64,000 nucleotides of DNA from an uncultured Gammaproteobacteria bacterium (GTDB taxonomy: Bacteria; Patescibacteriota; Microgenomatia; UBA8517): positions 4,694 through 68,693 of the forward strand of contig CAZCXV010000003.1 of the NCBI GenBank assembly GCA_964502815.1. The letters are read 5' to 3'. The notes under the pieces are model-generated. The model had not been told where the DNA came from. It made no database searches and was given only the letters and a program-made list of their open reading frames with translations. Positions 52,946-56,101 of the stretch are shown piece after piece. The first letter of the stretch is position 1; each line of letters begins with the position of its first letter. Position numbers and translations under genes: made by a program.

Positions 52946-55900
52946 ATGACCGATAATACAAAAAACGGCAATGGCCACAAAAATGGCAAAAACGGAAAAC
53001 CTACTAAAATTGTTAAAGTAGATTTTAATATTTGGAAAATAGCTCTAACAGTTTTAACCTTTCTTTTTATGGCGCCACTGTTTTTGTCTGTTTTTAAAGA
53101 CAAGTTAGATCAAAACAAAATTGAGCTTTCGCAGGCTTTAGCAGACATCAAAGAACAAAAAATTGAAAAGGTAGTTGTTGAAGAAAATAAGCTTCTTTTG
53201 ACTTATAAAGATGGCACAAATAAAGTTACATCTAAAGAAAACAGCATCTCGTTTCCAGAACTTATGGATAGATCTGGTATAAACTTAGCTGACGTTAAGT
53301 ATGACACTAATGACCAATCTCTCCTCAAGGCTTTTGCAGATTTAGTTAGTGTAGTTTTACCCATTGGTCTAATGGCAGTTCTTCTTTATTACTTTCTAAG
53401 GGCTCAGAATAAAGGTGCTTCAGATATTTTTTCCTTTGGCAGGAGCAAAGCCAAGTTGTTTGCTAAAGGTAAGCAAGATGTCAAGTTTGAAGACGTTGCA
53501 GGAATTGATGAAGCCAAAAGAGAACTAACCGAAATCGTTGATTTTTTGAAAAATCCTGCAAAGTACAAAAAAATTGGCGCCAGAACACCAAAAGGAGTTT
53601 TATTGGTTGGTCCCAGTGGAACTGGAAAGTGTATAACTGGAGAATCTATGGTGTGGACAAATAAGGGATTAATGGAGATCAAAGATATACCAAGATACTA
53701 TTATGTAGACAAAAATAATAATCGTACTTATGGCGCTTCGCTAGCAGGCTTTGATTTAGATAAGATCAAAAATAAAAATAGTTTTGCTTCTCATTGGTAT
53801 GATCTTGGTATTCAAAAAACAATAAAAATAAGATCTTCACAAGGTTACAACCTAGAAGGAACTCCCGAACATCCTGTTATATCTATGACTAATGATGGTG
53901 TTTTAAAATATAAAAAATTAAGCGAAGTTGAAAAAGGAGATTATTTAGCAATTCAATATGGAAGAAATATTTTTGGTGATTTAAATATGGTTGACCAAGA
54001 TACAGCCTATTTAATGGGACTTTTAACTGGTGATGGCAACATGAGTATTTCAAGTAGAGTTGGAATAACAAGTATTGACCCCGAAATAGTTAAATTTTTT
54101 AGAACTTATGTAAATAAACGATATCCTGATTCTGCAATTACCCCTAATGGTCAAAGTTATTTAATCTCAAACTGGGAATTTAAGAAATATTTGTACCAAT
54201 TGGGAATGAGCTATTTGCTTTCTTTTGATAAGGTTGTTCCTCCAACTATACTGCAGTCCCCAAAAAATATTCAAGTAGCTTTCTTACAAGGATTATTTGA
54301 CACCGATGCTTCAATTGAAAAAAGACATGGAGCCTTCGAATATGCCACGGTTAGCGAAAAGATGGCAAAGCAGGTGCAAATGATGATGCTTAATTTGGGA
54401 ATAATTGCTAGCTTGAATCAAAAAGGAAAGGTGGAAGATGGACATTACAGACCAGTTTATAGAATTACGATGACTGGAAGTGGACTTACTGCTTTTGCAA
54501 AAGAAGTTGGTTTCAAATTAACTAGAAAGAAAGAATTATTGTCTAAAAATGTTTCTAAAATGGGGCGTGTCAATACTAATATCGATGTAATTCCTGGTGT
54601 TGGTCGTCTAATTGAAGAGTCATGGAGGGAATTATCTAATAAAAAATTAAGTACAGAAAAATTGTCTAGAACAATAGATAAAGTTAGAAAAAGAAATAGG
54701 ATTTCTAGACAAACCCTCTCGGATTATTTGATTTATTCAAAATCTGTAAGTGACAATGTATTACATTATGAATTTATATATAGTCTGCTGAAATCTAATT
54801 TGTTCTTTTCTGAAGTTGTAGAAAAAACAAATAGTGAGAATCGTGTTTATGATTTCACAGTTCCAAAAACTCATTCCTTTATTTCAAATGGTTTTATTTC
54901 TCACAATACATTGCTTGCAAGAGCACTAGCCGGAGAAGCAGGTGTACCATTCTTTTCCATGGCAGGGAGTGAATTTATGGAGGTACTTGTAGGTGTGGGT
55001 GCATCCCGCGTGAGGGATTTATTTTCCCAAGCAAAAGCTTCGGCACCTTCGATTATTTTTATAGATGAGATTGATGCTATAGGTAGGCAGCGTGGTGGAA
55101 GAAATTTCATGGGAGGACATGACGAAAGAGAACAGACTTTAAACCAAATATTAGTTGAGCTGGATGGTTTTACGCCAAATGATCAAGTTCTAGTTCTTGC
55201 TAGCACTAACCGTGGAGATGTTTTGGATCCGGCACTACTTCGCCCTGGTAGATTTGATCGAAGAGTTATGCTTGATATGCCAGACAAAGAAGGTAGAGGA
55301 GAAATCTTAAAAATCCACGCTAGGGGCAAGAAATTTTCCGACAGTGTTAATTGGGGAAGAATTGCCGATAGGACAGTAGGTTTTTCTGGAGCTGATCTTG
55401 AAAATATGCTTAACGAAGCAGCAATTGCAGCAGCTAGACACGACAAAGAAGCAATTGAAATGAATGATATTGAAGAGGCGGCAACTAAAGTAAAACTAGG
55501 GCCAGCCAGAAAAAGACTCCAGAGCAAGGAAGACAGAACGATAACAGCAGCCCATGAAGCGGGTCATGCCATTGTCACCCATTTCCTTCCCAAGATGGAT
55601 CCGGTTCACAGAATCTCAATTGTTGCTAGGGGAATGAGTTTAGGACATACTTTAATTCCTCCTGCTGCAGACAGGTCTCATGAAACTAGGGAGAGATTTA
55701 TCCAACAGCTTGCAGCTATGCTTGGAGGAAGGGCTGCAGAAGAAGTGGTCTTTAATGAGATGACCTCTGGAGCCTCTAATGATATTGAATTGGCAACTAG
55801 GCTAGTCAGAGCAATGGTTGAAGAATATGGTATGAGTTCTCTGGGACCTATTAATTGGGGATTACAATCAAGCTATGGTGATTTTGGAAATGTTAACTAT

Positions 55901-56101
55901 ACGGAAAGTTCAAACATTTCCCAGAAAATGCAGGAAAAAGTTGATCTGGAAGTGGCCAAATTAATGGAAACTGCGCACCAAAAAGCTTTGACACTTGTCA
56001 AAAAGAACAGAAAACTTTTAGACAAAGTAACAGCTGCTTTATTAGAAAAAGAAACCATAGACCGAGACGAGTTTGAAAAAATTGTGGGGAAGAAAAAATA
56101 A
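52946..56101 (+). CDS. ftsH: ATP-dependent zinc metalloprotease FtsH, interrupted by an in-frame intein in the Walker A loop
   Basis: N-terminal TM helices. GPSGTGK| is followed by the intein, and the extein resumes |[16 protein letters not shown]. The second region of homology, the HEAGH zinc site and the C-terminal helical domain are present. The extein is about 625 aa. Confidence 0.9.
   Translation: [1051 protein letters not shown]
53630..54907 (+). other. Intein (426 aa) with LAGLIDADG homing-endonuclease domain
   Basis: Block A [10 protein letters not shown] with Cys1. Block B GTPEHPV. The two LAGLIDADG motifs are [12 protein letters not shown] and [11 protein letters not shown]. The terminal block is VYDFTV...FISHN followed by a +1 Thr. 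Confidence 0.8.

Follow-up and report, generated by a model that had tools for sequence, protein, structure and literature searches.

What a 426-residue insertion is doing inside the ATP-binding loop of an FtsH protease, and how a functional enzyme could emerge from such a gene, is the question raised by a 64,000-nucleotide stretch of DNA assigned to the Patescibacteriota (contig CAZCXV010000003.1, positions 4,694 to 68,693; the whole stretch is referred to below as the window). The list of open reading frames (ORFs) of the window contains a single uninterrupted frame of 3156 nt (52946..56101, forward strand) that encodes 1051 amino acids (aa), and an earlier note on this DNA, made from the sequence, had pointed out that about 625 aa would be expected of FtsH; both figures hold, and taking the insert out leaves a 625-aa FtsH in which the motif GPSGTGKT is re-formed. 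Our overall explanation, which we regard as very probable, is that this ftsH gene, in a genome of Microgenomates-like type, holds a class-1 intein within which a two-motif LAGLIDADG endonuclease is nested; the intein would splice itself out to give FtsH and would move by homing.

The host protein is identified by its sequence as FtsH, the ATP-dependent zinc metalloprotease. With the intein left in place the protein reaches 688.8 bits on the NCBIfam FtsH equivalog model (TIGR01241; cut-off 600), Pfam finds FtsH_ext, AAA, AAA_lid_3 and Peptidase_M41, and two N-terminal transmembrane (TM) helices, the Walker A and B motifs, the second region of homology and HEAGH (the HEXXH motif of the M41 peptidase) can all be located. 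The extein-only sequence aligns with T. maritima FtsH (7tdo; E 6.7e-160) from residue 28 onwards and without a gap across the Walker A junction, a comparison that the earlier note had put forward and that comes out in its favor.

The insert spans precursor residues 229-654 (426 aa, 48.6 kDa; 53630..54907, forward strand). It starts with a cysteine directly after GPSGTGK and ends in FISHN, just as the earlier note had read it, and it lies between the Lys and Thr of the Walker A motif GxxGxGK|T, with the C-extein resuming at TLLARA; P-loops are classic intein sites. Intein blocks A, B and G, recognized in that note, can be placed on the forward strand together with block F. Block A (53630..53668), which begins CITGES, supplies the N-terminal nucleophile Cys1 (Cys229 of the precursor, 53630-53632); block B (53849..53878) contains Thr78-x-x-His81 in the form T78-P-E-H81; and blocks F and G (54842..54907), ending SNGFISHN, provide Asp408, His415, the penultimate His425 and the terminal Asn426. 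Each of these residues is present in all 46 FtsH P-loop inteins compared, as are Lys-1 and the first C-extein residue, Thr+1, here Thr655, the Walker A threonine. Profile searches agree at a level well outside what chance would give, with scores above cut-off for NCBIfam intein_Nterm (27.5 bits, cut-off 24.5; residues 229-311), NCBIfam intein_Cterm (35.1 bits, cut-off 15.6) and Pfam Intein_splicing (61-64 bits, cut-off 35.8; E 1.2e-16 to about 1e-17). The Cys nucleophile, the TxxH motif, the block F Asp, the His-Asn terminus, Thr+1 and the restored host motif are together those of a class-1 intein, and we have hardly any doubt that the insert is one. By motif inspection every residue needed for the four-step class-1 splicing pathway is present, and the intein is very likely competent to splice. 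We note that Cys1 is the sole cysteine of the 1051-aa precursor, and that there is none in spliced FtsH.

An alternative is that the insert is removed at the RNA level, as a group I or group II intron, or that it is an artefact of assembly or a chimera. We give this next to no weight. The insert is in frame and has intein blocks precisely at both junctions; the K|C...HN|T junctions recur in 46 independent assemblies; the reading frame is continuous; and at gathering threshold Rfam finds four tRNAs in the window and no intron family. We found no evidence for either RNA-level removal or an assembly artefact.

A structural model points the same way. AlphaFold2, given an alignment of 15 full-length relatives, returned a model of the intein with a mean predicted local distance difference test score (pLDDT) of 90.4 and a predicted template modelling (TM) score of 0.91. 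In the PDB, the structures that Foldseek ranks highest are without exception inteins with an endonuclease, namely TliVMA (7qss; E 1.6e-26, TM-score 0.70), PI-PfuI (1dq3), PhoVMA (7qst), PI-PkoII (2cw7) and PI-SceI; the mini-inteins Ssp DnaB, Mtu RecA and Npu DnaB match the predicted splicing domain, and the free-standing LAGLIDADG enzymes I-DmoI and I-Tsp061I match the predicted middle domain with target TM-scores of 0.65-0.70. In the predicted model the Hint fold is present, and so, judging by the order of its secondary structure and by Foldseek, is the pseudo-dimeric alpha-beta-beta-alpha-beta-beta-alpha fold. Profiles above cut-off, model and block anatomy thus bear out the earlier note's proposal of a full-length intein with a LAGLIDADG endonuclease in the Walker A loop; the Hint fold and the intein blocks are there, no group I or II intron was detected, and the endonuclease fold could be modelled with its best matches among endonuclease-bearing inteins.

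The sequences LLTGDGN and LFDTDAS, which the earlier note took for LAGLIDADG motifs, fall in blocks C and E. Block C (54005..54040, forward strand; LMGLLTGD135G) is the first LAGLIDADG helix and carries the putative catalytic acid Asp135, an Asp in 45 and a Glu in one of the 46 inteins; block E (54278..54313, forward strand; LQGLFDTD226A) is the second and carries the putative catalytic acid Asp226, present in 46 of 46; and the block D region (54221..54244, forward strand; SFDKVVPP) contributes two invariant residues, Lys201, also found in 46 of 46, and Pro204. Each of the two helices is thus closed by a putative catalytic acidic residue, as in a LAGLIDADG endonuclease. Residue 227, immediately after the second catalytic Asp, is a Gly in 34 of the 46 and an Ala in the other 12, including the window copy. 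Lys201 precedes Asp226 by 25 residues, which we take to be the same spacing as that of K301 and D326 in PI-SceI. Pfam LAGLIDADG_3 covers precursor residues 443-522 (67.5-70.4 bits, cut-off 22.5; E 1.2e-18 to about 1e-19), and Pfam Hom_end scores 23.3 bits against a cut-off of 21.1.

Selection on this domain can be gauged from the ratio of nonsynonymous to synonymous divergence (dN/dS). For the endonuclease core it is 0.04-0.07 in informative family pairs, with no weaker constraint than in the splicing domain, and 0.09 for the window against the intein-bearing relative L002, where synonymous sites are saturated, so that the closer family pairs alone are informative; by this sequence measure the core is under purifying selection in the family pairs. 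The endonuclease of TliVMA cleaves its homing site in vitro, and its relative PhoVMA lost activity along with its catalytic aspartates (PMC8966425). The window intein has both aspartates, D135 and D226, together with Lys201. We put the chance that the endonuclease of the window copy is currently active, as its residues suggest, at somewhat better than even.

These features suggest how the locus may work. Translation would yield a 117.6-kDa precursor in which the Lys and Thr of the ATP-binding loop stand 426 residues apart, and with that loop split the precursor would be inactive as an AAA+ protease. Splicing would proceed through an N-S acyl shift at Cys1, trans-esterification onto Thr+1, cyclization of Asn426 and an O-N shift, which would leave a 69.0-kDa FtsH whose GPSGTGKT loop is whole and, separate from it, the 48.6-kDa intein. 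We presume that this FtsH is the cell's only or essential copy; ftsH, if it is the sole copy, depends on splicing, which would therefore have to be efficient, and we infer from the intact motifs that it is. The endonuclease, for its part, would target ftsH alleles that lack the intein and cut them across the conserved codons of the P-loop, with repair copying the intein in, and homing of this kind would explain its sporadic presence among close relatives.

That presence is indeed sporadic. Among the 120 best FtsH homologues retrieved with the extein-only query, mostly of the Microgenomates/Woesebacteria type, just two have the intein, namely P0048, which is the window protein itself, and P0087. 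P0049 (GCA_019662025.1, L003; 625 aa) and P0050 (GCA_034680565.1, L004; 621 aa), whose exteins come closest to that of the window at 77% identity, are both without it. The gene order tryptophanyl-tRNA synthetase (TrpRS), tRNA-binding protein, FtsH, 5'-3' exonuclease and family 4 glycosyltransferase (GT4) is common to the window, L002, L003 and L004, and in this setting the intein is present in L002 and the site is empty in L003 and L004, as had been foreseen in the earlier note's suggestion of intein-free sister alleles. The empty sites read GGxGTxGGAAAA|ACxxTxCTTGC... and encode GK|T at the same codon; the reconstituted intein-less site of the window is GTTGGTCCCAGTGGAACTGGAAAG|ACATTGCTTGCAAGAGCACTAGCC. 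Because the orthologous syntenic loci of the closest relatives lack it, the intein is a presence/absence polymorphism at an orthologous locus, and the distribution of occupied and empty sites is the pattern expected of a homing element.

The same allele recurs in many other genomes. We scanned one genome per GTDB species and examined the best 80 of 492 intein relatives in any host protein, 47 of which have FtsH extein matches (one of them, L066, is weak at 30% identity and is probably another AAA ATPase). In at least 44 species representatives the gene is one continuous ORF with K|C...HN|T junctions and an intein of 425-438 aa, although the scan favored full-length intein matches; other FtsH P-loop alleles, for which the earlier note had proposed a search, are therefore plentiful. 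No protein of mini-intein length was seen among the 120 closest FtsH homologues. The other FtsH P-loop inteins resemble that of the window in their GK|C...HN|T site, their length and their invariant splicing and endonuclease residues, and differ from it in sequence (30-66% aa identity) and, in some hosts, in having a second intein beside them. Judged by record titles, the carriers are mostly Patescibacteria lineages (Levyi-, Ames-, Davies-, Shapiro-, Woese-, Kuenen-, Lipton-, Vogel-, Kerfeld-, Ryan- and Nomurabacteria, Paceibacterota and Saccharibacteria) with some Acidobacteriota (Pyrinomonadaceae/Blastocatellia), and some records are titled 'uncultured Gammaproteobacteria' or similar; the complete genome CP011214.1 is among them. 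An intein-only query likewise found FtsH-hosted relatives with the same junction in Parcubacteria, Daviesbacteria, Beckwithbacteria, other Patescibacteria and one Pyrinomonadaceae bacterium, several of the matches being partial gene calls or starts inside the intein, and the names given for a few of the carrier records are 'FtsH', 'AAA family ATPase' and 'hypothetical protein'. In a library of 1.84 billion representatives 8915 proteins match the intein at E<=1e-3, and FtsH makes up 11 of the 150 best representatives.

Some of these genes hold more than one intein. FtsH genes of about 1400-1650 aa (P0171, P0174; L018, L022, L023, L031, L035, L046, L078) carry a second intein besides the P-loop one, and Pfam finds two Intein_splicing stretches in each of P0171 and P0174. 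The second intein follows GVGA|S...HN|SRIRNLF in P0171 and VILGA|S...HN|TNRPDVLDPA in P0174; Ser is the first residue of both (SVTGDTPVL...), the two are homologues of one another, and they occupy different FtsH sites, so that with the P-loop site FtsH has at least three intein insertion sites.

The history of the intein is only loosely tied to that of its host. Its GC (guanine plus cytosine) content of 31.5% compares with 35% in the N-extein and 42% in the C-extein, and its GC at third codon positions is 0.22 against 0.31 in the flanks; an AT bias in the same direction is found in most of the 44 other FtsH-intein genes (L005-L078), in which intein GC still follows host GC. Among 34 genomes in which intein and extein identities were compared, the correlation of intein identity with C-extein identity is weak (Spearman 0.26): in two relatives of Woesebacteria-like type, whose exteins are 71-75% identical to that of the window, the inteins are just 37-40% identical to its own, and a host at 65% extein identity has an intein at 66%. 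Because intein identity follows extein identity so poorly, several old, deep intein lineages must share this one FtsH site. A recent cross-species transfer of the window's intein lineage was considered and rejected, since in no pair among the 34 genomes is the intein more than 8 percentage points of aa identity more similar than its extein.

Two other candidates for recent movement were followed in this connection. In the Patescibacteria metagenome-assembled genomes L024 (2548-3822) and L025 (1934-3208) the inteins diverge by 0.86% in DNA sequence and the exteins by 5.4% (N) and 5.7% (C) at the nucleotide level (Fisher p=2.5e-14 against the intein), and the block of low divergence reaches past the intein on both sides, by about 100 nt on the upstream and about 170 nt on the downstream side; this trough looks like homing with short co-conversion tracts. 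A further contig, L001 (European Nucleotide Archive ERZ5996431, NODE_78816; 1820 nt, coverage 1.6), has 889 nt that are 100% identical to window positions 54721-55609, downstream of which come the last part of ftsH and the first part of the gene after it, at 60-76% identity. At its 5' end the C-terminus of an unrelated protein is fused directly to the last ~60 intein residues, and as it is probably a chimeric assembly we rejected it as proof of recent homing and have not used it; if real, it is a truncated ftsH fragment in a related genome. A phage vector was also rejected, as the viral relatives are distant and lack an FtsH host: P-loop inteins on viral contigs have at most 34% identity over their full length and sit in other ATPases, none of them in FtsH.

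Several points weigh against the explanation of a splicing intein that homes. The nearest relative of the window intein is 64-66% identical, so there is no direct sign that the window copy moved recently; no intein pair passes the 8-point margin just described; the divergence between the window and L002 (nonsynonymous divergence, dN, 0.29 for the intein and 0.18 for the C-extein) is also compatible with vertical inheritance and faster evolution of the intein; the second LAGLIDADG motif ends in D-A instead of D-G; and the L024 and L025 genomes have a mosaic structure outside this locus as well, other blocks being 99-100% identical, so that general recombination could give the same pattern. Both splicing and cleavage, moreover, are deduced from intact catalytic residues, and our view is limited to a 64-kb window, such that a second, intein-free ftsH may lie elsewhere in the genome.

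Taken together, the distant nearest relative, the lack of an intein pair closer than its exteins, the D-A motif and the fit of the L002 comparison to co-descent with a faster intein clock would suit an intein that splices but whose endonuclease is inactive, an immobile and vertically inherited passenger late in the homing cycle that persists for no other reason than that its imprecise loss from the P-loop would kill the cell. We think this possible but doubtful. Both catalytic acids and Lys201 are kept in the 46 inteins despite overall identities of 30-66%, the endonuclease core is constrained no less than the splicing domain (dN/dS about 0.04-0.09), and, within the bias of the scan to full-length matches, 44 of 44 species-representative inteins are full length; the closest orthologues have empty sites, and the L024/L025 pattern resembles homing.

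A different reading starts from the room that a 64-kb window leaves for a paralogue. The intein could be splicing-dead and this ftsH decaying or non-functional, with FtsH function provided by another gene outside the window. That room is the sole point in favor of this reading, and we consider it very improbable: the 3156-nt ORF is uninterrupted, all of the splicing residues are intact, the exteins retain every FtsH motif and pass the equivalog cut-off, the gene lies where intein-free relatives have their ftsH in a conserved syntenic setting, and 44 further genomes have this architecture in intact form.

A working intein could also have been turned to use by the cell, as a switch that releases FtsH only under permissive conditions of redox, metal or temperature acting at Cys1, and so be partly domesticated. 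Conditional splicing has been published for P-loop inteins of RadA and DnaB (PMC4513877, PMC6195587), the precursor's only cysteine is the nucleophile itself, and the allele is long-lived and widespread in Patescibacteria, with its sequences intact. However, the intein is found in so few of the closest FtsH homologues, and the nearest orthologues manage without it, that a needed regulatory role is argued against; an intramolecular disulphide trap is impossible because the precursor has one Cys; and a conserved endonuclease active site serves a selfish element rather than a regulator. We therefore regard such a switch as improbable. Slightly more speculative still is the idea that the intein is more than a selfish element and may act as a post-translational gate on the main membrane quality-control protease of the Patescibacteria, responding through Cys1, nucleotide or membrane state; the two inteins in the FtsH of some relatives, at two of at least three sites, could in that case represent layered control rather than repeated parasitism.

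Against known systems, a selfish class-1 intein of this architecture is familiar. The best structural match, the TliVMA intein (7qss) at the VMA-b site in the P-loop of an archaeal V-ATPase A-subunit, is 429 aa long against 426 here and likewise combines a class-1 Hint domain, a two-motif LAGLIDADG endonuclease and an accessory domain inserted in a P-loop; it differs in its archaeal host, in sitting in a V-type ATPase and not an AAA+ protease, and in sequence (21% identity). The textbook homing endonucleases among inteins, PI-PfuI (1dq3) and PI-SceI (1vde, 1lws), share the bipartite splicing/endonuclease architecture and two catalytic Asp residues, and PI-SceI presumably also the conserved Lys ~25 residues ahead of the second Asp; their hosts and insertion sites are others, and identities are 12-20%. 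The nearest relatives outside FtsH are bacterial P-loop inteins of PhoH, MutS, UvrD-type helicases, clamp-loader and terminase-like ATPases, at ~26-34% full-length identity; they too are inserted after the Walker A Lys (GK|C...HN|S/T), and the host proteins differ. Relatives at this distance, after the Walker A Lys of other ATPases, point to an old intein family specialized for P-loops rather than to recent jumps between hosts. LonB is a membrane-anchored AAA+ protease, and as such would be the closest published functional analogue of the host. The archaeal LonB intein (PMC4760082, Table 2) lies, like ours, within an ATP-dependent protease that is a P-loop nucleoside triphosphatase, and differs in being archaeal and in a Lon rather than an FtsH/M41 protease.

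How unusual the host is can be judged from the same source. In its main text this 2015-16 survey counts PhoH and UvrD among the top bacterial intein hosts and lists DnaB-b, MCM-a, RFC-S-a, PhoH, UvrD and archaeal LonB, and FtsH is absent from that main text (PMC4760082). Full-text literature searches found no publication describing an FtsH intein. The earlier note's word 'unusual' is nevertheless somewhat strong, since the same allele is present in at least 44 other species-level genomes and archaeal LonB inteins are published. The kind of intein and the type of site are well known, and the FtsH host appears to be undescribed in the searchable literature.

Surveys find inteins concentrated in proteins of replication, recombination and repair, and FtsH extends this host range to a membrane proteostasis enzyme; it is moreover a recurrent host, since dozens of Patescibacteria and some Acidobacteriota have such an intein with its endonuclease intact and insertions occur at three or more sites in the protein. 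In bacteria of the Candidate Phyla Radiation (CPR) LAGLIDADG elements are already known to abound in rRNA introns, and activity has been demonstrated for one of them (PMC11270868); the FtsH intein is a further sign that selfish elements driven by LAGLIDADG enzymes are plentiful in CPR genomes. On the practical side, gene callers and annotators often truncate or mislabel FtsH-intein genes, and the family is a source of new mesophilic inteins of the Thr+1 type and perhaps also of new rare-cutting endonucleases. Our understanding of intein mechanism is unchanged by it.

The remaining features of the gene and its surroundings lie on the forward strand except where stated. The N-extein (aa 1-228; 52946..53629) has the FtsH_ext match and includes the start of the AAA module; it contains TM1 (53030-53095), TM2 (53342-53398), the periplasmic FtsH_ext region between them and, at its end, the first half of Walker A, GPSGTGK (53609-53629). 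The C-extein (aa 655-1051 plus stop; 54908..56101), whose Thr+1 completes Walker A (GK|T), contains the pore loop (54977-55000), Walker B (55052-55078), the second region of homology (55205-55261), the AAA lid and then the M41 peptidase with HEAGH (55553-55567). Pore-loop 1 reads MEVLVGVG, with a Leu at a position that is usually aromatic, as in the MFVG of E. coli FtsH; because the closest FtsH relatives read MEMLVG with or without the intein, this Leu is a clade trait unlinked to it. The syntenic neighbours are a TrpRS-type class I tRNA synthetase (51602-52582) and a tRNA-binding-domain protein (52584-52934) upstream, which bear on the orthology of the locus only, and the 5'-3' exonuclease (56129-57022) and GT4 glycosyltransferase (57019-58134) downstream. 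A tblastn search of the window with 20 inteins matches solely 53.5-55 kb, and no second intein was found in it.

Of the four tRNA genes in the window (48703-48774, forward; 51292-51361, reverse; 51479-51550, forward; 5741-5812, reverse), two lie just upstream of the TrpRS-ftsH cluster, adjoining a XerC-like integrase gene (49949-50809, reverse), and upstream of the ftsH neighbourhood are also two ORFs, of 1093 aa (45355-48636, forward) and 293 aa (48891-49772, reverse), for which there is no Pfam match at E<=1e-5. Two groups of proteins met in the searches deserve mention. Five FtsH homologues of ~890 aa found with the extein query (P0051, P0053, P0058, P0063 and P0067) have two tandem AAA modules before a single M41 peptidase, with two Walker A loops, two AAA Pfam stretches and no intein, and are in effect type-II AAA+ forms of FtsH. 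Finally, P0044, P0045 and P0046 (731 aa) are tyrosine recombinases with XerC/XerD-like Pfam domains that carry a distant intein (23% identity) with LAGLIDADG_3, inserted after ...VIRHC|..., away from any P-loop.

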